This document shows, one piece after another, positions 4,271 through 64,000 of a DNA stretch of 64,000 nucleotides. This stretch comes from Callorhinchus milii (lineage: Eukaryota). The position numbers were made by a program, and so were the translations under genes. Every line of letters begins with the position of its first letter. The first letter of the stretch is position 1. Where the stretch lies: positions 138,200,001 through 138,264,000 of the forward strand of contig NW_024704742.1 in NCBI RefSeq assembly GCF_018977255.1, written 5' to 3'. The notes under the pieces were generated by a model, which saw only the letters and a list, made by a program, of their open reading frames with translations, did not search any database and was not told the origin of the DNA.

Positions 4271-5075
4271 ACTGAGTTCCCGTGTGCCAATGCAGACGGC
4301 CATTACCCCCAAACACTCCCCCAGCCCTCCCTTCTCCTATCAGGAAAAGAGAAGGCGGTTTCTCTCCCCCTCTCTCTCTCTCTCTCCCTCTTCCGGTTTC
4401 CTGGCCAACAATCCCCCAGATCGCTTGATTTGGGGGTTCTCAAACCCAGTCACTACACTCCTCTGTTATTATTTGTGCAGAGTTTTGCTACGAGAAATTG
4501 CTAAAAAAGATGCAAACTTCTCCCCAATTTTTCCCCAAATTCCACTCAGTCCGAGAGGCCTTTGATTCCTAAGTTTAAGGTGTAATTAATAATCTAAATA
4601 ATATCACGATGGCAACACGCTTTCCCCAGATCTGCACCAGTTTCCATCTTACGTTTGCTGATGAAAAAGGTATTGCAGGCTGAGGCGAGGCGGAATTCGT
4701 GGGTTCCTGGGTGGGAGGGGAGGGGTTCAGTGTCACAAGGCAGTGGGAGTCATGTAGCTACGAGGCAGTGAGATGTGAGATGTCCCACATGGCGCCCGCA
4801 GTGACTCTGTGCTTTAAGGTTACAGTGGAAACGACGGCTGTTAATAGTCTCCTCTCCCGACGAGGACGAGTGGGCCTTTCATCAGCAGCAGGGAATGGGG
4901 TTATAGAGGAACAAGGAGAGGGGTAGGAGAGAGAGAGCAGGGAATGGGATGAGAGGGGGGCTAGGGGGAGAGGGTGTGCGGGAAGAGAGAGGATGGTGGA
5001 GGGGAAGTGGGAGAGCGTTGGAAAGTGCTGAACGGGATATGGAGAGAATCTCTCGTGGCTCAGCTAACCTCTCAC

Positions 5076-5209
5076 CTTGATTTTCATATCATAGTCTGTT
5101 AGGACCATAAAGAACTCGTTAAACGTCATGCCGTAGTGTTCTCGGAGCTGTGCGGGGAGGGCGGGGCTCAGCGAGTCGGTAGACACAGACCTGAAGGGCG
5201 CCTCCTTCT
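5076..5209 (-). CDS. CCDC80-like: CCDC80-like coding exon 3 (134 bp)
   Basis: ctctgtag|EKEAPFRSVSTDSLSPALPAQLREHYGMTFNEFFMVLTDYDMKIK|gtgaga, phase 1 to 0, in frame with exon 2. Matches recalled LRKEYGMTYNDFFMVLTDVDLRVK. Not in the ORF track. Confidence 0.93.
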
Positions 5210-5220
5210 CTACAGAGAGA

Positions 5221-5900
5221 CAACAACAACAAAATTATATTTATAGAGCGCCTTTCACGTCGGGAGGACATCCCAAAGCACTGGACAGTCAGGGGTCAGG
5301 GCCCGAGCATGGGGTATGGGTGAGGGAAGGCAGAGAGATGGGAGGGCGAACAAAGGCACGGTCGAAGAGAAGGGTCTTGAGACCGGCCTTGAAGGAGGCG
5401 AGGGAGGAAGTGAGGCGAAGGGGCCGTGGGATGGAGTTCCAGAGTGTGGGAGCAGAGAGGCTGAAAGCCCGGCCACCGATGGTAGGGCGGGTCGGGCGGG
5501 AGACATGGAGCAGCCGGAGCCCACTGAACGGAGGGAGCGGGCAGGTTGGTAGGTCAGAGAGGTAGGAGGGGGCAAGGCCATGGATGGCCCTGAAAGTGAG
5601 GACGAGGATCTTGAATTTGAGACCAGCAGAAATCACAACAACAACAACAACAACTTGTATTTATACAGCGCCCTTCACATATAGCGTCCCAGAGCACTTG
5701 ACAGTGACGGAATCTGACACCAGGCCAAGGGGGAGAGGTATGGGGAAGATTTTTAGGCGGGATTTCAAATTGGGGAGGGAGAGGGTGAGGTCGAGGCGGA
5801 GGGATTGAGGGAGGGAGTTCCAGAGTTTTGGGGTGTAGTGACTGAAGGCACTGCCACCAATGGTGGATTGGAGGGAACGAGGGAGGGCGGAACCAGGCGA
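5221..5900 (-). mobile_element. Two adjacent L2 3' fragments of different subfamilies
   Basis: FKILVLTFRAIHGLAPSYL and IGGSAFSHYTPKLWNSLP, each with a (ttg)n tail. Confidence 0.85.
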
Positions 5901-7750: not shown

Positions 7751-8650
7751 GGCAGCAGATCAGCAATGTCCCACAAACAGCCATGAAGTGGATGGGCAAT
7801 ATTCCCCACAGCCCCGCGGCATCTTTAACGTCCGCCTGAACAGGGCGCAGACGGGGAGTGAGGTTTAACGTCTCATCTGAAGGACGGCGTCTCTGACAAT
7901 GCGTCTCTCTCTCTCTCTCTCTCTCCCCCCACCCCAGCGCAGCAATGGAGCATCAGCCTGGACCGTGAGCTCAGAGCCCCCGACGTGTTGGGCTCGAACC
8001 CACAAACCTCCTCACTGAGAGGCGAGAGTGTGAGCGACTGAGCCGGGCTGTCGCCACAAACGCCAACAAATTGCAATCACGAAGCACCCCTTCAGGTCAG
8101 CAACGACAACAAATTACGCTTGTGTGGGGCCCTTCACGTCGGAAAGACGCCCCAAGGCTCTGGTGACACGAATGCAAAGCGTAGGGACTTCCGTCAGCAA
8201 ACGCAGCAGGCGTTTTGCGCACAACGGCGTCTCACTAACAGTCGTGAAGTGAGCAAGCGATTGTATCTGGGGGCTCGTGGAGTCCTGTGCTGTAGCGGTC
8301 AGATCACTCGCCTCACAACCAAGAGGACTGTTTGTGGGACACCGACGTGCGCAATTGGCCGCCGTGTTTCGCCCACGAAGAGCACAGTCACTCCGCCTTA
8401 CGCTATATTGTGCGCAGCTCTACGAGACGCCATAATGCTCCATATCAACGACATTACGACGGGTTGTGTCGAATGCCAGGAATAATATAATGACTGTGTA
8501 TTTTGGAGGAGAACACGGCAGCCAATGTGCAGGGAGGTGACGGCTCACACACAGTCGTGAAGTGAGCGAGCGATTATATCTGGGAGATTGAGCCCCCCCC
8601 ACCCCCACACGCCCACTTCGCAGCTGCCGCTGGCCGGGGTCCGCACTCAC

Positions 8651-8807
8651 CGAGCTGGTAGGTCTCCACGCTGAGGTTGCTGTTGGAGATGGAGCCCAGG
8701 ATGGACACCACACTGACCTTGCGCAAGGCCAGCTCACACACGTGCTCCAGGTACAGGTCTCTCTGCCGGACATGGTGCTCTGTCTCCCTGCCCGGTGCCG
8801 TGATAAT
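8651..8807 (-). CDS. CCDC80-like: CCDC80-like coding exon 2 (157 bp)
   Basis: gtgcag|IITAPGRETEHHVRQRDLYLEHVCELALRKVSVVSILGSISNSNLSVETYQL|gtgagt, phase 0 to 1. Matches recalled CCDC80 LITAPKAENNMYVQQRDEYLESFCKMATRKISVITIFG. Confidence 0.93.
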
Positions 8808-9471
8808 CTGCACGAACACAGGCGGACGGCAGTGTCACCAACAACACAATGACAATAATAATCCTTTGCATTCGACACAGCCCCTCATCACGTCTTCGAG
8901 ACGTCTCAAAGCGCTTCGCAGGATACACTGCCTCCTCGCTGACTCCATCCAGGTTAAGGAAGATGTCACGAAAATTATGGCGTTCACTCACACACAGACA
9001 GACACACACTGACTCACACACACACACACAGTCACACACACACACACACAGTCACACACACACACAGTCACACACACACACACAGTCAGTCACACACATA
9101 CACACACTGACACACACAGTCACTCACACACACACACTGACTCACAGACACACAGTCACTCACTCACACACACACACACACACACACGCATCCTCTGGGC
9201 ATCTAAATACAGATGGGGGGTGGGGGGTGGGGGGGGAGAGCAGGGAATGGGGTTAGAGTATAGAGAGAGCTCCAGTGGGTGGGGGGGGGGATTTTGGGGG
9301 TGTTAAAAGCAGGTCTTCCTTTGGTTCTACACCAAGTCCTGAGCAGGAGAGGGGGCAGTGGTGGGGGGGTAGTGTGGGGGGAGAGGGCAGTGTGGGGAGA
9401 GGGCAGTGTGGGGGGGCAGTGGGGAGGGGGGGAGGGAGCAATGGGGGTGGGGGGGGTGGAGTCACACTTAC

Positions 9472-11529
9472 TAGCAATCGCCTCTTGTTCTGAAAGTGTC
9501 TCAGAAACCCCTGCAGGTCCTGGCTGGGTGGGGGGCCGGGGGGGTCGCCTCTCCGCTTCTCTTTCTTCCTCCTGTCCTTTCGGTTCCTCTTTTGCCCCCG
9601 CTTGCGCTTCCTGCCTCCGCGTTTGCCCCCCCTGGTGGAGTTGCGGTCTCTCTGGCCGCCCTTGGCTTGGGGGGGCTTGGGGATGGGGTCAGGGGGGTCA
9701 CCCGGCCTCTCCCCCTCGCCCTCGCTCGCTGGCCCCGGCTGCCTGACGGGGTTACCCCCCAAGGTTGGGCTGGAGGAGAGGGCGGGTGGGGGCTTTGCGC
9801 TGGTGCTGACCCACTGAGCGGCCCCCAAACTGGGCTGAGGGTTCCTGGATGTCCCCAAACCCCTCTCCCGCTCCCCGGGGGCTGCTGAGCTGGTGTCGCC
9901 TTGTCTGGGGGTCCGATCGCTGGGGTCCCGGGCGGTGTTGGTCGGGGGCTCGGGGTGTAGCCGAGGAAGGGTGGGTGGGTGCGGGCGGCGATGGGAAGGT
10001 CTCTCCCTCTTGGAGGCCAACATCTGGCTCACCCTCTGCCTGACCCTCTCCAACAGTGAGGTCTCCCCTCGCCGCCCAGACCCTCTGCCCGCAACCGCAG
10101 CTCTCGCTCCGACCCCAACCCCAACCCCACTCCCAGCCCCAACCCCACTCCCAACCCCACTCCCAACCCCACTCCCGACCCTATTCCCAGCCCCAACCCC
10201 ACTCCCAGCCCCAACCCACTCCCAGCCCCAACCCCACTCCCAGCCCCAACCCCACTCCCAACCCCACTCCCAACCCCACTCCCGACCCTATTCCCAGCTC
10301 CAACCCCATGTGGAGCCCTAACCCCGTGATGGAGCCCATTCCCAGCCCTGGCAAACGCCTTGCGCCTCTGCGCACTGCCCGCCGCCCGGGTGGCGGCCCC
10401 CCCTGGCCCGCGGGCCCGCTGCCTGTGAGCCTTACACTGGACCTGGAAGCCCCGACGCCGGGTTTTCTCCATCCGCATGCGGGGCAGCGCGTCCACCGCC
10501 TCCAGGGCCGCCTGCGCCCGCACAGCGTAGGGGAAGCGCTCCCGGACGCCCAGGTCCTTCCCCAACACCAGGAGAGCGAACTCGCCGGCGTCCAGCGCAA
10601 AATAGCGCCTCATATTGGCCACCACGGGGGGGGGCACCGCCTGGCGGCCGGACACAAGCCCCCGGGGGGAGACCCTCACCACCCAGCCCCCCCCGGGGCT
10701 CCCCCAGGGCTCCCCCCGGGCCCCCCCCCAGGGCTCCCCCCGGGGCTCCCCCCGGGGCTCCCCCCGGGGACCCCCTCAGCCCCGAGCAGCAGTAGGAGGT
10801 GGAGGTCCCTCTCGGCCAATTGACAGCCCAACTCCCTGTTCCTCTCCAGGTCCAGTTGCTGCTCCATCAGACGGTAGGAGGGGTCCTCGGGACCGGGGGC
10901 GGACAGCACCAGCCACCGGTACCGCCCCGCGTAGGGGGCCAGTAACCCCAGCCCCGCCCCGGCCAGGACCCCCCCAGCCCCCCGCCCGCCCTGCCCCCCC
11001 GCCCCCCCCCAGCCCCCCGCCCCCCCCCAGGCCCCCGCCCGCCCTGCCCCCCCCGCCCCCCCCAGCCCCGCCCCGGCCAGGACCCCCCCAGGCCCCCGCC
11101 CGCCCTGCCCCCCCCGCCCCCCCCAGGCCCCGCCCGCCCTGCCCCCCCCGCCCCCCCCAGGCCCCGCCCGCCCTGCCCCCCCCGCCCCCCCAGCCCCCCG
11201 TCCCCCACCCAGAGATACCCCTCCCCGGCTCCCCCTCCCTCACCCCCTCCCTCACCCCCTCCCTCACCCCCTCCCCCTCCCTCACCCCCTCCCTCTCCCT
11301 CACCCCCTCCCCCTCCCTCACCCTCACCCCCTCCCTCACCCTCACCCCCTCCCTCACCCCCCTCACCCTCACCCCCTCCCTCACCCTCACCCCCCCCCTC
11401 ACCCCCTCCCCCTCCCCTCACCCTCACCCCCTCCCCCTCCCTCACCCTCACCCCCTCCCTCACCCCCTCCCTCTCGCCCCCCGTCTGCCCCAAAGCCAAC
11501 AGCAGCAGCAGGAGGGTCCCCCAAGTCAT
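9472..11529 (-). CDS. CCDC80-like: CCDC80-like secreted protein, large first coding exon (signal peptide, low-complexity repeats, DUF4174 domain 1, Lys/Arg-rich stretch, start of domain 2); several apparent frameshifts
   Basis: ATG at 11529 gives [18 protein letters not shown] (signal peptide). [27 protein letters not shown]...CQLAERDL and [51 protein letters not shown] match CCDC80 domain 1 as recalled (FAGKNRVWVISAP...ERYPYPVRLEAMYEVIDQGPIRRIEKIRQKGFVQKCKA). Ends FQNKRRLL then donor gtaagt at 9471. Frame breaks lie in G/C runs and repeats. Confidence 0.9.
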
Positions 11530-22055: not shown

Positions 22056-23870
22056 CAACAACAAAATTATATTTGTAAAGCGTCTTTCACATCGGGAGGT
22101 CGTCCCAAGGCGCTGGACAGACAGAGTTACGGACCCGAGCTGAGGGTCGGGGTGGATGGAAGGCGGTGGGGGAAGCAGGGAGATTGAAAGCACAGTCGAA
22201 GAGGAGGATCTTTAGATGGGTCTTGAAAGAGACGAGGGAGGGGGCGAGGCGGAGGGGCTGCAGGATGGCATTCCAGAGGGTGGGGGCAGAAGGCCTGCCT
22301 GCCAATAGTGGGGCAAGCGAGGCGGGGCGGGGGATGTCAAGCAGGCCGGAGCCTGCTTAGTGAAGGGAGCGAGCAGGATGGTAGGGGGTTAGGAGGTCGC
22401 AGAGGTAGAGGGGAGCAAGACTATGGTGGACTTTGAAGGTGAGGACCAGGATCTTGAACTGTATCCTCTGTGTGATGGGAAGCCAGTGGAGTCAGGTGAG
22501 AATGGAGGTGATAGTGTCATGGAGCCTGGTGGGGGTGAGGATGGGAGTGATGGGGTCGGGGAGCCTGGTGGGGGTGGGATGGGTCTGATGGGGTGGGGGA
22601 GCCTGGTGGGGGTGAGGATGGGGGTGATGGGGTCACGGAGCCTGGTGGGGTGAGGATGGGGGTGATGGGGTCACGGAGCCTGGTGGGGGTGAGGATGGGG
22701 TGATGGGGTCACGGAGCCTGGTGGGGGTGAGGATGGGGGTGATGGGTTCACGGAGCCTGGTGGGGTGAGAATGGAGGTAATGGGGTCGGGGAGCCTGGTG
22801 GGGGTGAGGATGGGGTGATGGGGTGGGGACCCTGGTGAGGGTGAGGATTGGTGTGATGGGGTCGGGGAGCCTGGTGTGGGTGAAGATGGGGGTGATGGGG
22901 TCAGGAGCCTGGTGGGGTGAGGATGGGGGTGATGGGTCACAGAGCCTGGTGGGGTGAGGATGGGGTGATGGGGTCGGGGAGCCTTGTGGGGGTGAGGATG
23001 GGGATGATGGGGTACAGAGCCTGGTGGGGGTGAGGATGGGGGTGATGGGGTCATGGAGCCTGGTGGGGGTGAGGATGGGGGTGATGGGGTCGGGGAGCCT
23101 GGTGGGGGTGAGGATGGGGGTGATGGGGTGGGGGAGCCTGGTGGGGGTGAGGATGGGGTGATGGGGTCGGGGAGCCTGGTGGGGGTGAGGATGGGGGTGA
23201 TGGGGTCGGGGAGCCTGGTGGGGGTGAGGATGGGGTGATGGGGTCGGGGAGCCTGGTGGGGGTGAGGATGGGGGTGATGGGTGGGGAGCCTGGTTGGGGT
23301 GAGGATGGGGTGATGGGGTCGGGGAGCCTGGTGGGGGTGAGGATGGGGGTGATGGGGTCGTTGAGCCTGGTGGGGGTGAACATGGGGTGATGGGGTTGGG
23401 GAGCCTGGTGGGGGTGAGGATGGGGTGGGGTGGGGAGCCTGGTGGGGTGAGGATGGGGGTGATGGGGTGGGGGAGAGGACACGGGCTGCAGAGTTAGTTC
23501 GGGATGATCTGCAGTCTGTGGAGGGAGGGGTTGGGGGCCGACAAGGAGGGAGTTTGCATAGTGGAGTCTGGCTGTAATGAGGGGTGTGTGAGGGTCTCGG
23601 GGGCTGTGGTGTGAGACAGTGGGGGAGTCGGGCCATGTTGCGGGGGTGGGGGAGGCAGAGCGGGTCATGGCGCAGATGTGGGGTAGAAAGGATAGTTGAG
23701 GGTCAAACCAGACCCCAAGGTTCTGGACTGGCACAGTGAGGGGGAGTGAGCCCCAGGGATGGTGATGCTGTCAACGCCTGAGGTGAGGAGGCGCTGACGG
23801 GAGCCAAATAGGAGCCCAGAGGCAGCCGAGCGGAGGCAGCAGGTAGTGGATTTGGGGGTAAGCAGGAGAG
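22056..23870 (-). mobile_element. L2 LINE fragment containing an internal minisatellite
   Basis: NLGVWFDPQLSFLPHI, ARLHYANSLL and SFKTHLKILLF motifs on either side of the array. Confidence 0.85.
22515..23475 (+). repeat. Minisatellite of about 38 bp (ggagcctggtgggggtgaggatgggggtgatggggtcgg), roughly 25 copies
   Basis: Read directly. Confidence 0.93.
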
Positions 23871-23905
23871 AGAGAGACAGACACACACAGATTACTGGCT
23901 TCTAC

Positions 23906-23990
23906 CTTTCATACATTCCAGGAGACTGGGTGAGGACCATCTGGGAGGTCTGGTCTGGGAGCAGTAACTGACACCAGGCAGACACTTGTG
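23906..23990 (-). CDS. C5orf34: C5orf34 homolog internal exon, 5' part lost in gap
   Basis: QVSAWCQLLLPDQTSQMVLTQSPGMYE(R)|gtagaa resembles recalled GWCKLTFPDGQEQLIQIEHPEPYER. Phase 2 fits the next exon. Confidence 0.8.
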
Positions 23991-24015
23991 NNNNNNNNNN
24001 NNNNNNNNNNNNNNN
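23991..24015. other. Assembly gap (25 N) truncating a C5orf34 exon
   Basis: N run. Confidence 1.
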
Positions 24016-27000
24016 TTGACTGTATTTTGTGGGTGAAATGCGGCAGCCGATTGTGCACAGCAGCGTCCCACAAACAGTCGTGGATTGAAAGACCAATTTT
24101 TTTTGGAGAGATTATTACCCCAGAAAGCGATCCGCCAATCAACAACCGAGTTCCTCCTTACTGTCAAGTAAACAGAGGCGTATGGAATCGTGCCTAAGAT
24201 TTTGTCCTGCCGGGAATCAAACCCAGGTCATCTTGCTCGCGAGGCGAGAGGTCTAACCGCTACACTGCAGGGCTCCATTGATCAGCCAGCGAGTCATTGT
24301 GAGTTAACTTGAGGCGTTTCCTCTTATCATAGGGAGAACCACACAAAAAAATTGCTCTCTTTCTCCCTGTGTGAGTGGCCAAGGAGACTTAAATGTTAAC
24401 AATGAAATAATAATAATCCTTGTATTTGATACAGCGCCTTATCACGTCTTCGAGAAGTCTCAAAGCGCTTCGCAGGATGTATTGTAAAGTGTAGTGACTG
24501 TATATTTGTGGGCGAAACGCAGCAGCCAATTGCGCACAGCAGTGTCCCACAAACATCATGGATTGAGTGACCAAATTATTATTATTTTTTGAAGGAATTA
24601 TTAGCCCTGGAAAAGCGATCTGCCAATCGACAAACAAGTGGGTTCCTATTTAATGCTAGGTAATCAGGGGAAACTTGCCTAAGGGTTTGCCCTGCTTGGG
24701 AAACAAACCCACGTCCTCTCGCTTGCGAGGCGAGCGCTCTAACCACTGAGCTACAGGACTCCGCAACAATCAGAGCCAACAGGACTGCGAGGGCTGACAG
24801 ACAGCAATGTACCTGGGGTGGAAACCACGCAGTCACTGATTTCTGCCTCATTCCCTGCTTCTTCCTTCAGGCCTCACCCCACAGGGAAAGAGGGAGAGAG
24901 GAGATGGCTTGGTGTGGGCCAAGTGGCCTGTTTCCGTACATCTATGTTAATTCTACGTAAGCACAGAACAAGTACCCAGAAGCACACAGAAAAGCGCAGA
25001 TTTCTCACAATACCACACTGTCTAAAACCACAAACCTCAAATGTCTTGCCACTTCCTCAAAAGGGTTATTGAAAAGGAATTTTTTTGTCAGCTGGGTGGC
25101 TGACATTGTAGTAACCCATCATCATAGCTAAGAGTATCGAAACCAGAGCTCCACATGTGGATGCCAACTCCACAAAAATGTTCCAATAGTGCCAAGGAAC
25201 GTTTAACACCTCCACGGGCAAGCAGGAACTCAGTTTATCATCTGATCCGAAGGGCGGCACCTTCATTATTGGTTCATTTCCACTCTTAGTTCCCATAATA
25301 CTCTGTGTAGTTCTGTATTGCAGTGGCTAGAGCGCTCGCCTCTCAAGCGAGAGTACCTGAGTTTCCCGGGCAGGGCAAAACATTAGACAAGTTTCCTTAC
25401 TCCACACGCCTCTGTTTACCAGCAGTGAGTAGGAACCCGGTTGTTAGACGTTTGGCGGATTGCTTTTCCGGGGGTAATAATCCCCTCAAAAATAAAAATA
25501 ACAATAATTTGGCCACGCAATCCACGACTGTTTGTGGGACGCTGCTGAGCACAATTCGCTGCCCCGTTTCGCCCATAAAATATACCTCGATTCGCTTTAC
25601 AGTATCTTCTGTGAAGCGCTTTGAGGCGTCTTGAAGATGCGATAAGGCACTATATCAAATGCTAAGGATTATTATTAGTAGTAGTAGTTCACATTAACAC
25701 TCCAAATTCAGTTTCTCCAATTCCATTTCCAGATTTTGACTGTATTTCTGTTTAATACCGTGCATCCATTTCCAAGAAAATCAATTTAGTGAGGATTTTT
25801 GCCTCTACAACTATTGATTTACTGTTAAATAACTGGAGGCAGTAACTGTTCTGATGAAGGATCATCCCAACCCATTAACCTGTCTTTCATTTTCCAATAC
25901 TGTTTGGTCAAGCCTCCACTCAACTGGTACCGGCCTCCTGATCGTCCCTCGTACTCTCCGCCCCACCATCGGAGGTCGTGCTTTCAGCCAGTGCCCCAAA
26001 ACTCTGGAACACTCTCCCTCAATCCCTCTGTCTTGCCCCCTCTCTCCCCTCTTTCAAGTCCCTCTTGAAGACTTTCCTGTTCGACCATGCTTACAGTCAC
26101 CCCCCACCTCCACCCGGCTCGGAGTCAGGCTCCGCCACTGTTAAGCTCTCTGAGAGCGCTATACAAGTGCCAGTTGTTGTTGTTGTTGTTGTTGTTTGAT
26201 GCAGTGGTGGTGGATTGTTGGAAGTGTGTCCTTCAGATGAGACTTTAAACCGAGCTTCTGTCTGCCTGTTCAGCACTTTGAGATGTCTCAACAACATGAT
26301 AAGGCGCTTTATCAAATGTAAGAATTATTATTATTATTTCAGATTTGCAGCATTCATCAACTTTCTTTATGATTTGAAAATCTTAAGTTACTTTTGAAAA
26401 TGTTTACTTAAGTGTTTAGAATAATACAACAATAATAATCTTTGCATTTGTTATAGTGCCTATGAAGTCAAAACATTCAAAGTGCTTTCAACTCACAAAA
26501 TATACAGTCACTCTACAATATATTCTGTGAAGCACTTTGAGATGTCACAACAAAGTGATAAGGCGCTATATCAAATGCAAGGATTATGATTATTATTATT
26601 ATTATTAGAGCACTTGCCTCGCACGTGAGAGACCTGGGTTCGATTCCCAGCAGGCCAAAAATAATAATAATAATAATAATATCTTGCATTTGATATAGTG
26701 CTTTTCACGTATTCTCGACGGCTCAAAGCACTTCACAAAATTTGCTGTAAAGCAAATTGACTGGTTATTTGTGGGCAAAACGTGGCAGCCAATTGCGCAC
26801 AGCAGTGTCCCACAAACAGTCGTGGAAATGACCAAATTATTATTGTTTTTTGTTTTGGAGAGATTATTATTAGGCGTGTGGGGTAAGGAAACTTGCCCAA
26901 GGTTTCGCCCTGCCTGGAATTGAACCTAGGTCTCTCGCTTGCAAGGCGAATGTTCTAACCATGTTGGGCAAGCATCCTTCAAATGCAAGAAGTATTATCA

Positions 27001-58250: not shown

Positions 58251-58344
58251 CACTCATTCCCACCATCAGGAGGTGCTGTGTCTCCATCAACAACTTGCAT
58301 TTACAAAGCGCCCCTTTGCAGGGTAGTGTCCCAGAGCTTGACAT

Positions 58345-59230
58345 GCGGGCTGGTGGGGGGGGTGTGGGCTGGTGGGGGGCGGTGCGGGCTGGTGGGGGGG
58401 GGTGCGGGCTGGTGGGGGGGGTTGAGGGCTGGTGGGGGGGGGGGTGCGGGCTGGTGGGGGGGGGGTGCGGGCTGGTGGGGGGGGGTGCGGGCTGGTGGGG
58501 GGGGGGGTGCGGGCTGGTGGGGGGGGTGCGGGCTGGTGGGGGGGGTGCGGGCTGGTGGGGGGGGTGCGGGCTGGTGGGGGGCGGTGCGGGCTGGTGGGGG
58601 GGGGTGCGGGCTGGTGGGGGGGTGGGGGGGGGGGGTGCGGGCTGGTGGGGGGGGTGCGGGCTGGTGGGGGGGGGTGCGGGCTGGTGGGGGGGTGCGGGCT
58701 GGTGGGGGGGCGGTGCGGGCTGGTGGGGGGCGGTGCGGGCTGGTGGGGGGGGTGCGGGCTGGTGGGGGGGGGTGCGGGCTGGGGGTGGGGGGGGGGTGCG
58801 GTGGTGGGGGGTGCGGGCTGGTGGGGGGGGTGCGGGCTGGTGGGGGGGGGTGCGGGCTGGTGGGGGGGGGGTGCGGGCTGGTGGGGGGGGGGGTGCGGGC
58901 TGGGGGGGGGGGGTGGGGCTGGGGGGGGGGTGCGGGCTGGTGGGGGGGGGGTGCGGGCTGGTGGGGGGGGGGTGCGGGCTGGTGGGGGGGGGGTGCGGGC
59001 TGGTGGGGGGGGTGGGTGCGGGGTGGTGGGGGGTGGGTGCGGGGCTGGGGGGGTGGGTGCGGGCTGGTGGGGGGGGGGGTGCGGGCTGGTGGGGGGGGGT
59101 GCGGGCTGGTGGGGGGGGTGCGGGCTGGTGGGGGGGTGCGGGCGGGGGGGGGGTGCGGGCTGGTGGGGGGGGTGCGGGCTGGGTGGGGGGGGGTGCGGGT
59201 GGGGGGGGGTGCGGGCGGGTGGGGAGGGGG
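58345..59230 (+). repeat. G-rich minisatellite (gtgcgggctggtggggggg)n
   Basis: About 20-bp unit with variable G-run length. Confidence 0.95.
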
Positions 59231-59328
59231 TGTGAGTGCTGTTCTGAGTTACATTATCATTAATATTTTTTAATGTCTATTTAAACCTGACTACACCGTC
59301 ACGGGGGGGGGGGGGGTGGCGACCATTT

Positions 59329-59462
59329 GGAGGACCGGTGAGGACCATTGGAGGACCAGTGAGGATCATTGGAGGACCGGTGAGGACCATTGGAGGACCG
59401 GTGAGGACCATTGGAGGACCGGTGAGGATCATTGGAGGACCGGTGAGGACCATTGGAGGACC
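59329..59462 (+). repeat. 21-bp tandem repeat (ggaggaccggtgaggaccatt), 6 copies plus a partial
   Basis: Read directly; appears as the EDHWRTG repeat in the ORF track. Confidence 0.92.
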
Positions 59463-59667
59463 CGACAGCGCCAGGAGGACCCGTGGAGAGGATGTGCCCG
59501 GGAAAGAGAGGTCGCCTCTTGGCCGCGACGGCGCCTCATTGTCGCCGGTGGGGGGGGGGTGGGGGGTCGCTATTCCCGGCCATTGTTGACCGGCTTCCGG
59601 TCGGGTCGGGCGGCGCTTCCGGCGGGCGGTTGGTTGAGGGGATTTGAAGATAAACACGGGCCCAGCC
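59463..59667 (+). promoter_or_regulatory. PAIP1 CpG-island promoter / 5' UTR
   Basis: CpG-dense. Two CTTCCGG ETS/GABP-type motifs (about 59594 and 59616) and a YY1-like GGCCATTGTT (about 59578) lie just upstream of the ATG. Confidence 0.7.
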
Positions 59668-59980
59668 ATGGACGGCAAACCCGCCGCTTTCGACCGGGCT
59701 CCGGGAGCGGGCCGGGGGCGGGGCCGAGGGCTGGCCACGGGCTCGCCCGGCCTCAGGGCCCAGGGACACGGCGACAGCGCGCAGGAGAGCGGCCTGTCCG
59801 GCCCTGGAGGGGGGGGAGGAGGAGGAGTTGGAGGAGGCCCGGGCCCCGGGGCCGGCTCGGGAACAGGCTCCGGCTCGGGCGCCGCTTTCCCGGGTAATGG
59901 TGTTCATGTCAAGGGCGGAATCCAGCAGCAGGAGCCGCTCCGGCAGCCGAGGAGCAGCCCCCCACTGGCAGAGTATCAGG
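59668..59980 (+). CDS. PAIP1: PAIP1 (poly(A)-binding protein-interacting protein 1) exon 1
   Basis: Kozak gccATGg, then MDGKPAAFDRAPGAGRGRGRGL...FPGNG...EPLRQPRSSPPLAEYQ(G)|gtaacc. Matches recalled human MSDGFDRAPGAGRGRSRGL...FPNG...PPLRQPRTTPP. 313 bp, phase 1. Confidence 0.9.
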
Positions 59981-60421
59981 GTAACCTCATCATATATAGC
60001 TAAACACTGGGGTGTACCCCCCACACACACACACACACAGAGTATCAGGGTAACCGCATCATATATAGCTAAACACTGGGGTGTACCCCCCCCCCCCACA
60101 CACACACAGAGTATCAGGGTAACCGCATCATATATAGCTAAACACTGGGGTGTACCCCCCCCCCCCCCACACACACACAGAGTATCAGGGTAACCTCATC
60201 ATATATAGCTAAACACTGGGGTACCCCCCCCCCCCACACACACACACACAGAGTATCAGGGTAACAATATATAGCTAAACAGTGAGGTGTACCCCCCCCC
60301 CACACACACACACACACAGAGTATCAGGGTAACAATATGTAGCTGAACAGTGGGGTGTACCCCCCCCCACACAGAGTATCAGGGTAACTAATATATAGCT
60401 AAACAGTGGGGTGTACCCCCC

Positions 60422-60463
<42 letters not shown>

Positions 60464-60630
60464 CAGGGCAACATCATCATATATAGCTGAACAGTGGGGT
60501 GTACCCCCCCCCCACACACACACAGAGTATCAGGGTAACAATATATAGCTAAACAGTGGGGTGTACCCCCCCCCACACACACACAGAGTATCAGGGTAAC
60601 AATAATATATAGCTAAACAGTGGGGTGTAA
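59968..60630 (+). repeat. Young minisatellite (about 55-85 bp unit) built from the PAIP1 exon 1/intron 1 junction
   Basis: Unit cagagtatcagggtaac...atatatagctaaacaStggggtgtaccccc(ca)n; the true junction plus 9 copies. Confidence 0.9.
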
Positions 60631-60669
60631 TAATAATATCATCATTAATGTTGTTAATATAATATGACT

Positions 60670-62150
60670 AAACAGTGAGGAGCAGCCCCCCCGCCCCCGC
60701 CCTGCCACTGGCAGAGTATTCTGGTAGCTCATCACAATCAAATATATTAATATAACCGTTAATAACATTAATATTAATTGCTCTGCACAATCGGCTGCAG
60801 TGTTTCGCCCACAAAATATACAGTCACCACACATTACGGTATATTCTGTGAAGCGCTTTTGAGACGTTGCGAAGACGTGATGAAGCATATCAAATGCACG
60901 GATTATTATTATTATACAATGTCATCAATAAAATGCAACTAGACCGTGAGGAGCAGAGTATCCTGGTAACCTCATTACAATATAATAACTAATGTATGAT
61001 GTAACTAAATGTTGAGGAGCAGCCCCGCCTCTGACAGAGTATCCTGGTAACTCACAAATATATAATTAATATAATAATTAATATCATTAATATAACATCA
61101 TTAATATAATAACTCCACAAATGAAGAGCAGTACAGGGGTAACTCATATGGTTAATAGCATTATGAATGTCATCATTATAATACAATAACTAAACACTGA
61201 GGAGGAGTCCGCTGCTGGCATAGTATCCGAGTAATAATATTGTTATAACTAATCTATCGTAATTAATATAACTAATCACAGGCTGAGTGTCAGTGTAACT
61301 CATATAGTTATTAATATAATAGCTAATAACATAATTAATTTCATTAATATAATGTAACTGAACCCTGAGGAACAGTCCGCCACTGGTAGATTATCTGGGT
61401 AACAATATCAAAATAATCCTTGCAATTGATAAAGCGTCTTATGTCTTCGCAATGTCTCAAGGCGCTTCGCAGAGTATACTGTGAAGCGAATTCACTATAG
61501 TTTGTGAACAAATCGTGACAGCAATTGTGCACTGCAGTGTCCCACAGATAGTCGTGGATTGAGTGGCCCATTATTATTTATTTAATTATTTGACGAAGGG
61601 AATTTTACCCTCGGAAAATGATCCACCAATCGACTAACAATCAGGTTCCCACTTACTGCTAGGTAAACAGAGGCTATGGAATAAGGAAATTTCCCTAATA
61701 ATAAATAAATAGTAAAATTCCCTGCCCAGGAATCAAACCAGGTTCTCTTGCTTGCAAGGCGATTGCTCTAACCACTGAGCTACAGGACTATAACATAATT
61801 AATATAATTGCGGAGCAGCCCATCACTGGCAGAGTACCATAATTATTAATAATTTATAAGATAAAAGTATCAGCAATGTAACATCATTTCTATAATAATT
61901 CAACATTGAGGAGCAGCCCGCAACTGGCAGAGTACCAGGGTAACTCATATCATTAATGTAATAACTAATATATAATGTGTATAATATCAGGAATATAATA
62001 ATTCAACACTGAGGTGCAGCCTGCCAGTGCCAGAGTTTTTGGATGATAATAATATAATTAATATAATAATTAATATAATATACAGGTAATTAGTATAATA
62101 ACTCAACACTGAGGATCAGACCCCACTGGCAAAATACCCAGGTAACACCT
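60670..62150 (+). repeat. Older degenerate copies of the PAIP1 exon 1 end in AT-rich spacer
   Basis: gaggagcagccc...actggcagagta...ggtaac variants near 60678, 60948, 61014, 61123, 61199, 61367, 61810, 61908, 62011 and 62111. Confidence 0.8.
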
Positions 62151-63019
62151 TTATTATAATAATATCATTAATATGGTTACCAATAAACACAGTAATCAGT
62201 TTATTTATAAAATCACCCCCAAAATATAGTCGCGCCAGTTTACACATATTCTGGGAAGCATTTTGAGACATCTTGACAAGGTGATAAGGCGCAATATAAA
62301 ATGCAAGGATTATTATTATATTGTTAGTGATTCGGATGAGGTGTTAAAATTAAGTCCCACCATTCTGGTTGGGCAAGCGTTAAAGATCCTGCGGTGCTAT
62401 TGGTAAAGCCAAGGGAATTTCTCTCTCCCAATATCCTGGCCAATAATCCCCCTGATATAATTGGACACTCACTTCATGGCTGTGTGTCTGTGAGAGTGCA
62501 GTGCCCAGATTGGCTGCTGCGTTTGCCTATAAATACACAGTGACTACAGTAAAATCCAGAAGGACACCGTCAACATCCCAGTTTACAGTCAATGTTAAAC
62601 AATTAATAATAAACCTCATGTTTGATACAACATCTGTTGTATTGAAGTGACTCAAAATGCTTGAGGCAGTTGCTGACAAGTGTAGTGACTGCAAAATCAC
62701 TGCATTTGCTCACAAATAAGTCACTGCATTTGGTGAACACTCTTTCCCCCCCCCACCCCTCCTCTCTGTTTCTCTTCTCTCTCTGCCTGGTGATTTCTTT
62801 TGTCTCTGTAAAATGCTTTGTGTAAGCTGTTGTGAAGCTGCTAGACTTTCACTGCGAGAAACACTGTGTAAGAGTGAGCTGTGAGTTTTTTTTGGTCAGC
62901 CTGCCCTCAGCCCCTCTTGATCCCAACACCGAGCCGGGTCCAAATCTCTGATTATCCAGGGCCATGGGACATCCTCTTGATGTGAAAGCTGCAGTGAAAA
63001 TGTAATTTATTGTTTGTTG

Positions 63020-64000
63020 TTACATAAGAAATGCTAGACGAAAAAAGACCAAGATCCATCCACGTAGGGTTCTGACGAAATGTTGAACCACTTTCCTTTC
63101 TCCATAGATGTTGCCTGACCTGCTGAGTGCCCAGCGATCACTGTTTTTGTTTCAGATTTCCAGCATCTGCAGTATTTTGTGTTTTATCCAAGGTCCATCT
63201 AATTCACCTTCCACACTCCTGGCAGTCGCATGCACATATAATAATAATAATAATCCTTGCATTTGATGTAGCGCTTTTCACGTCTTCTTGACGTCTCAAA
63301 GCACTTCACAGAATATACTGTAAAGTGAATTGACTGTATATTTGTGGGCGAACGCGGCAGCCAATTGCGCACAGCAATGTCCCACAAACAGTCGTAGATT
63401 GAAAATGACCAATTTATTATTGTTTTGTTTTGGAGGATTATTATTAGGCTCTGTGTGGAGTAAGGAAACTTGTCCAAGGTTTCGCCCTCTGCCTGGAATC
63501 GAACTCAGGTGTCATATACACACACACACACACACAGCCCGAACTACCTACATCCTAAATTCCATAATGTTATTTCCTAAAAGAAAACTTGTTAATCTGT
63601 TTGAAAGAATCAACATGTCCTGCTTCAGCCGTCTCCCTCGGGAGTCTGTTCCTCAGGTTCCCTATTCGCTCATTGAAATAGTGTTTGCATAGATTTGTTC
63701 TGAATTCCCCCTTCAATCGCAGGCCGTGGCCTCTGGTATTACTATTCTGGACAAGTTGAAACAGACAGTCATGATCCAGATCGTTTGGCCCCTTTAGAAT
63801 CTTAGACAGCAATCATGTCGCCTCTCAATCTGCTCTTTCCCAGTGTGAACACACCCAACTTACTGAGTCGCTCCTCATAGTCCAGTCCCTCCATTCCCTC
63901 AATCATTTGGTTGCCCTCCTCTGTATCTTCTCGATTTCTCCCATATCCTTTTGTACTGCGGTGACCAGAACTGCATACAGTATCTAAGTACAATCTCACC
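63020..64000 (-). mobile_element. CR1 3' end with nested Penelope-like fragment (63061-63187) and SINE (63239-63510)
   Basis: Nearly the same peptide as 45335-45823; the tail matches 49700-49825 once the insertions are removed. Confidence 0.88.

Follow-up and report, generated by a model that had tools for sequence, protein, structure and literature searches.

Minisatellites that repeat a 5′ splice site have been described in human genes and in amphioxus. In the accessible text of Borensztajn et al. (2006; PMC1557585), the 37-bp VNTR of human F7 intron 7 repeats identical donors of which the most upstream is used, and identical downstream donors did not compete in an F7 minigene. The same text lists minisatellites with 10–25 repeated donors in IFI6 (6-16), CBS intron 13, LMNB2 and PDGF; those of LMNB2 and PDGF have units of 81–100 bp, and there only the true donor is reported as used. 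The CBS repeat is linked to lower activity in the accessible part of PMC1395315, which records an association only. In amphioxus, minisatellites termed “mirages” occur in Adh3 and in the globin genes BflGb6 and BflGb9, where, in the accessible sections of the paper, splicing is apparently undisturbed and turnover takes place in clusters (PMC3087553). Our literature search, which covered mainly open-access papers, returned these related precedents, along with unrelated papers, and no report of an array at PAIP1. Here we describe, in Callorhinchus milii, a minisatellite whose first unit straddles the boundary between exon 1 and intron 1 of PAIP1, and which most likely arose through the turnover of tandem repeats, without a regulatory function under selection.

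The window, that is, the whole stretch of 64,000 nucleotides that was analyzed, contains an open reading frame that starts at the ATG at 59668 and ends PPLAEYQGNLIIYS followed by a stop codon. A protein search with this frame gave 14 matches, of which 13 were named PAIP1 (12 from sharks and rays, and one from alligator with E = 0.3) and one was unnamed, supporting the gene assignment made in an earlier note on this DNA. Over 104 aa the frame shows no difference from C. milii PAIP1 (XP_007899849.1; P0019), and the same holds for the whole overlap with a second C. milii record (P0018). A query taken from the region past the junction led to a cluster of four C. milii proteins, two of which span the junction. 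These two proteins match the exon and continue EYQ-DNN, so the intron follows the first base of an Asp codon, at 59980/59981. On the basis of protein identity, the coding part of exon 1 lies at 59668–59980 on the forward strand and comprises 104 codons plus one base (phase 1). The 5′ untranslated part, on the same strand at 59561–59667, was delimited from the RNA-type contigs of runs X2, X3 and X1, of which the first begins at or before 59561, the second at 59589 and the third at 59632; exon 1 thus starts at or before 59561. No further PAIP1 exon, exon 2 included, was found within the window.

Donor use was read from three RNA-type runs (X1, X2 and X3) among the ten on record, all three from one study and with an RNA status that was guessed; the contig comparison took in the old layer of the array described below and skipped most of the young array as repeat. 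In all three runs the exon 1 contigs left the genome at 59985 with one differing letter and continued for 195, 1552 and 513 letters past that point, the 1552 letters of the X2 contig forming one piece at a depth of 134, while the DNA run X10 matched without difference to 59998. Judging from EYQ-DNN and from this mismatch pattern, exon 2 would start with ATAAC, which against the GTAAC of the intron gives exactly one mismatch and four matches. The true 5′ splice site is accordingly placed at 59978–59986 on the forward strand (AGG/GTAACC, cut at 59980/59981) by the RNA-type contigs and the proteins, and the donor position of 59980 given in the earlier note fits three of three RNA-type contigs and two of two junction-spanning proteins. 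These results fit the most upstream donor as the carrier of dominant splicing, and it is the dominant form that they describe, since contigs drop rare forms, nonsense-mediated decay would hide them and the joint tables were dominated by interspersed repeats. Depth at 60454–60602 was left out of account, being high in the DNA run as well. RNA-type contigs at a depth of 2–3, as compared to 48–134 for the spliced contigs, cross the old donor-like sites at 60966, 61399 and 62086 unspliced, and may correspond to pre-mRNA or DNA. The agreement at four of five letters between the predicted exon 2 start and the intron start (59981–59988) has a parallel in young copies 4, 5, 8 and 9, which read GTAACAAT, a sequence similar to the Asp-Asn-Asn codons with which exon 2 begins; this resemblance is either due to chance or a trace of an intron or exon-end origin.

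The intronic half of the first repeat unit (59981–60008, forward strand) carries an in-frame TAA at 60001–60003, and read-through of the true donor yields GNLIIYS before this stop, as had been noted earlier. The premature stop anticipated for use of a downstream donor is also borne out: direct use of any copy leads to a stop at codon 112. In the case of copy 1 the stop lies only 46 bases ahead of the new junction; later exon junctions should still trigger decay even at this distance. Any RNAs arising from rare direct use of downstream donors would therefore probably be removed by nonsense-mediated decay. Upstream of the true donor, an exonic GT at 59894 (59891–59901) pairs better with U1 than the true donor does (−7.4 versus −5.9 kcal/mol); it lies 87 bases away, and splicing from it would remove 29 residues while keeping the frame. 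This GT is read through in the dominant contigs, indicating that plain scanning is not the whole rule of donor choice.

The core CAGAGTATCAGG/GTAAC, present at 59969 at the true junction, recurs at 60038, 60107, 60178, 60249, 60317, 60372, 60456, 60523 and 60584. The nine further junction copies, one with GC for GT, that the earlier note had counted are thus recovered within 620 bases, nine being the copy number in the assembly. Tandem Repeats Finder (TRF) and the core search delimit this young layer of nine units at 60009–60621 on the forward strand, with a period of 69 bp (TRF) and units of 56–88 bp, each made up of a decayed exon piece, a C-run, (AC)n, the last 12 exon bases, the donor and the intron start. 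Positions −12 to +5 are kept by eight of the nine copies; GC replaces GT in copy 7 (60456–60472, forward strand), which pairs with U1 at −3.1 as compared to −5.9 kcal/mol. A truncated unit identified by unit alignment at 60622–60676 (forward strand), devoid of exon end and donor, joins the young layer to the old one. It is extremely improbable that the young array is an assembly artefact. No contig among those listed spans it, and C-runs and (AC)n are prone to error, but the X10 DNA contig breaks exactly where a repeat predicts that it should, at 59998, where the last unique 31-mer ends, which shows that the repeat is present in the raw data and not just in the assembly. Furthermore, another X10 contig connects the last young unit with the old layer, others cover parts of old copies, and the young cores fall into two subgroups with shared variants.

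The old layer (60677–62192, forward strand) contains ten secure and two weak decayed units with AT-rich intronic halves. Ten older degenerate copies, whose presence had been claimed before, were found between 60677 and 62153, with scores of 30–62 against the junction, whereas the best score per 1-kb block in the 58 other blocks of the window was 12–28; two further fragments (approximately 61123–61143 and 61866–61882) score 18, which is the chance level, and were counted by position alone. GT is kept in ten of the twelve. The layers differ in age, as had also been proposed, young cores being 0–5 mismatches apart and old units 70–92% like the junction. Two interspersed repeats, neither assigned to a strand, interrupt the old layer. 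One piece, with approximate ends at 60780–60922, has inverted matches to 63234–63343 and a contig depth of thousands; the other, at 61400–61790, has matches of 66–74% over 290–400 bases at at least nine other places in the window. Both are presumably SINE-like. Between 60887 and 61563 the X10 sequence differs from the window by six letters and five gaps over 677 bases, while the other X10 pieces listed show 0–1 differences each, and X10 here represents a diverged haplotype of this portion of the old layer. The old layer also holds four AATAAA signals, at 60927, 61700, 61704 and 62182, and the two best U1 matches, at 62086 and 62142, sit 96 and 40 bases ahead of the last of them.

Comparison of the units indicates that both layers belong to a single array with a common breakpoint. 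The claim that the old copies carry a longer piece of exon did not hold, because the spacer of the young units lines up in register with the exon piece of the old ones. The breakpoint CTAAACA(C/G)T is common to young and old units; in old units it is followed by GAGGAGCAG, a C-run, ACTGG and the last 12 exon bases, and in young units by GGGGTGTAC, a C-run, (AC)n and then the identical 12 exon bases. Intermediates exist as well, in that young copy 5 retains GAGG and old copy 11 has GAGGTGCAG. Alignment of the shortest young spacer to the exon piece beats shuffled sequences with p = 0.011, a value that is modest alone and gains from lying in register behind the common motif. We thus rejected the idea that the young units captured a shorter exon piece, as the spacer is a decayed exon piece with a shared breakpoint and intermediates. 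The proposal of repeated expansion from the same seed stood in part: re-amplification is supported, and the data are better read as one founding duplication, the exon-proximal end of which was later re-amplified from a decayed copy. In this scenario approximately 32 exon bases and the intron start would have been copied once; a first array would have been amplified, have decayed and have acquired the two interspersed repeats; and the exon-adjacent copy, whose exon piece was already a C-run and (AC)n, would later have been re-amplified, either by slippage or by unequal exchange with the real junction. It is thus most likely, from the unit alignments, that the young layer grew from a decayed neighbor of the exon. 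The stretch that the young units and the gene would still have in common begins 12 bases before the exon end (−12) and reaches into the intron. Exchange within this stretch would leave the protein unchanged and copy the donor, so the young donors could be perfect without selection.

Considering that the earlier note had proposed that the copies act as decoys or bind U1 and thereby tune PAIP1 output, we analyzed computed pairing energies with U1. The true donor pairs weakly (−5.9 kcal/mol), and the copies are weak too. Sites whose pairing matches or exceeds that of the true donor number 12.7 per kb in the young layer and 4.4 in the old one, as compared to 5.3 in the upstream 16 kb and 1.1 in the 1.8 kb of intron that follows; the old layer shows no excess of U1-pairing sites over flanking DNA. 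In the twelve old copies, 22 of 24 letters of the GT are kept versus 291 of 356 elsewhere (p = 0.28), with no sign of selection to keep or remove it, and six among the remaining 35 letter pairs are better preserved than GT. Nor did positions +1 to +5 of the old copies differ from the exon (52/60 versus 261/320 kept; p = 0.46). In simulations of neutral decay at 15–22%, the ten GT pairs retained, the mean pairing with U1 and the four sites that match the true donor all fall within the simulated range, the smallest one-sided P being 0.09. These tests concern twelve short, related old copies, which gives them little power, and do not extend to the young layer. At positions −3 to −1, the old copies are more diverged (19/36 kept versus 242/284 in the rest of the exon piece), an excess found post hoc and inflated by shared ancestry, three copies sharing one variant; the changes alter donor strength both ways and, by eye, the number of different letters is slightly above that of other three-base windows.

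Because the first donor is dominant, the decay of the old copies looks neutral, U1 pairing is weak and the F7 minigene donors did not compete, the proposed decoy role was not sustained. It is very unlikely that the copies form a selected device that sets the PAIP1 level, either as U1 decoys or as a shield against premature polyadenylation at AATAAA. Sites that match the true donor are 2.4 times as dense in the young layer as upstream, and the old layer combines its four AATAAA signals with the two best U1 matches shortly before 62182, but neither GT nor U1 pairing is conserved in excess in the old copies, where power is low. All young sites are weak, one young copy is without GT, and the old layer varies in X10. 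In addition, eight weak sites per nascent RNA could not deplete U1, given its abundance in the cell. A leak is less improbable than a device, although still unlikely: the array would have an accidental origin, the nearest one or two copies would take a measurable share of splicing, and degradation of the RNAs with the stop at codon 112 would slightly shift PAIP1 output without selection. Consistent with a leak, the true donor is weak and the first three copies, 69–209 bases away, share its letters from −3 to +6. IFI6 and CBS use two further copies, as far as the accessible text of PMC1557585 goes, and the association of the CBS repeat with lower activity (PMC1395315, in part) points the same way. 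At odds with it, the X2 contig runs past the junction as one deep piece, and the accessible text on F7 reports that the copies did not compete, 50 further clones per transfection included (PMC1557585). A leak need not give copy number any influence, as the share going to the nearest copy need not rise with the number of copies.

The young units can also be read as acceptor, 9-base exon and donor. The layout C-run/(AC)n, CAG, 9 bases and donor is present in nine of nine young units, one with a GC donor, and the first of these nine hypothetical in-frame microexons would lie at 60041–60049 on the forward strand. Such an exon would add Glu-Tyr-Gln to the flexible N-terminal part of PAIP1, in frame and without a stop, and its RNA would escape decay. 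The young units have lost each of the three AG pairs in the exon piece (one survives in copy 5), their CAG follows a C-run and (AC)n, and nine bases preserve the frame. At the same time, the 20 bases before the CAG are 50–75% pyrimidine with 0–2 T, and the CAG was already in the exon, so that no new signal had to be selected. Introns between neighboring units would measure 46–75 bases, which is at or below the usual vertebrate minimum, although skipping one unit gives 129. The added residues were not seen in three of three dominant RNA-type contigs, in which rare forms are dropped, or in two of two proteins. C-rich tracts can drive cassette exons via poly(C)-binding proteins, according to the accessible part of PMC4797308, and the C-rich run before CAG in each young unit resembles the exons described there. 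Unlike those exons, however, a PAIP1 exon would have only nine bases, with (AC)n between the C-run and the CAG, and its inclusion was not seen in the dominant contigs. Taken together, we regard the microexon reading as highly doubtful. In a broader version, decay of the copied exon piece into a C-run and (AC)n would have made every young unit a functional acceptor, 9-base exon and donor; the array, variable in length, would supply in-frame microexons that place Glu-Tyr-Gln approximately 35 residues upstream of the PABP-binding motif, and RNAs that use a copy directly would go to decay. This version seems to us barely more credible. If it were true, both the amount and the sequence of a translation factor would depend on repeat number, and the locus would represent exon birth from a splice-site minisatellite in progress.

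We return to repeat turnover as the most likely explanation. Here, the first donor would win because it marks the end of the cap-proximal exon and is transcribed first, much like the upstream-first rule of human F7. Tandem repeat makes up 19.6% of the window and two further arrays lie just upstream of the gene, so that an array at an exon edge needs no special cause. One of the two is a G-rich 20-bp array of 45 copies at 58344–59232, which, judging from its composition, could form quadruplexes near the promoter; the other is a 21-bp array of 6.7 copies at 59321–59462. A 38-bp array of 26 copies at 22495–23475, rich in GGTGAG, was considered as a second case and rejected, being repeat-derived DNA for which no adjoining exon was found. 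A Pfam search of 300 of the 348 candidate frames yielded no exon set adequate as a baseline of other junctions. On the minus strand it gave a weak C5orf34_C match at 23905–24111 (E = 8e-4) that adjoins an assembly gap, and three DUF4174 matches at 5067–5234, 8577–8834 and 10032–10775, which are probably exons of one gene. In human, C5orf34 is a neighbor of PAIP1 on the same strand; here it would be upstream and on the opposite strand.

The PAIP1 array belongs with the boundary-spanning splice-donor minisatellites of human F7 intron 7, CBS and IFI6 and with the amphioxus mirages. It has a first unit that spans the boundary, head-to-tail donors in the intron, a dominant upstream donor and a homogenized cluster beside diverged units. 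A search of the other scanned genomes gave no stretch resembling it. It offers a natural example of a first exon that selects the correct donor among approximately 19 look-alikes, and of repeat turnover across the edge of a coding exon without change to the protein; its significance would rise if PAIP1 output depended on copy number or if the mRNA contained the 9-base exons. According to the accessible text of PMC1557585, splicing in IFI6 and CBS also employs the next two copies, whereas PAIP1 splicing is known from its dominant form only. Like the mirages as presented in the accessible sections of PMC3087553, the array consists of tandem copies of an exon–intron boundary, with homogenized clusters and outlying units left out; in the amphioxus globin genes the units are few (6 and 3 in BflGb6), and length variation was shown there. 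Differences from F7, as far as the accessible text on that gene goes, concern the position and make-up of the array: PAIP1 involves a first exon and F7 an internal one, the PAIP1 units measure 56–110 bp with 32 exon bases as compared to 4 exon bases in F7, and PAIP1 has approximately 20 copies in a young and an old layer, with microsatellites inside the unit. As in that description of F7, the first unit spans the exon–intron boundary, the donor is repeated in the intron and the most upstream one is used; in this cartilaginous fish, the upstream-first rule thus extends to an exon next to the cap.
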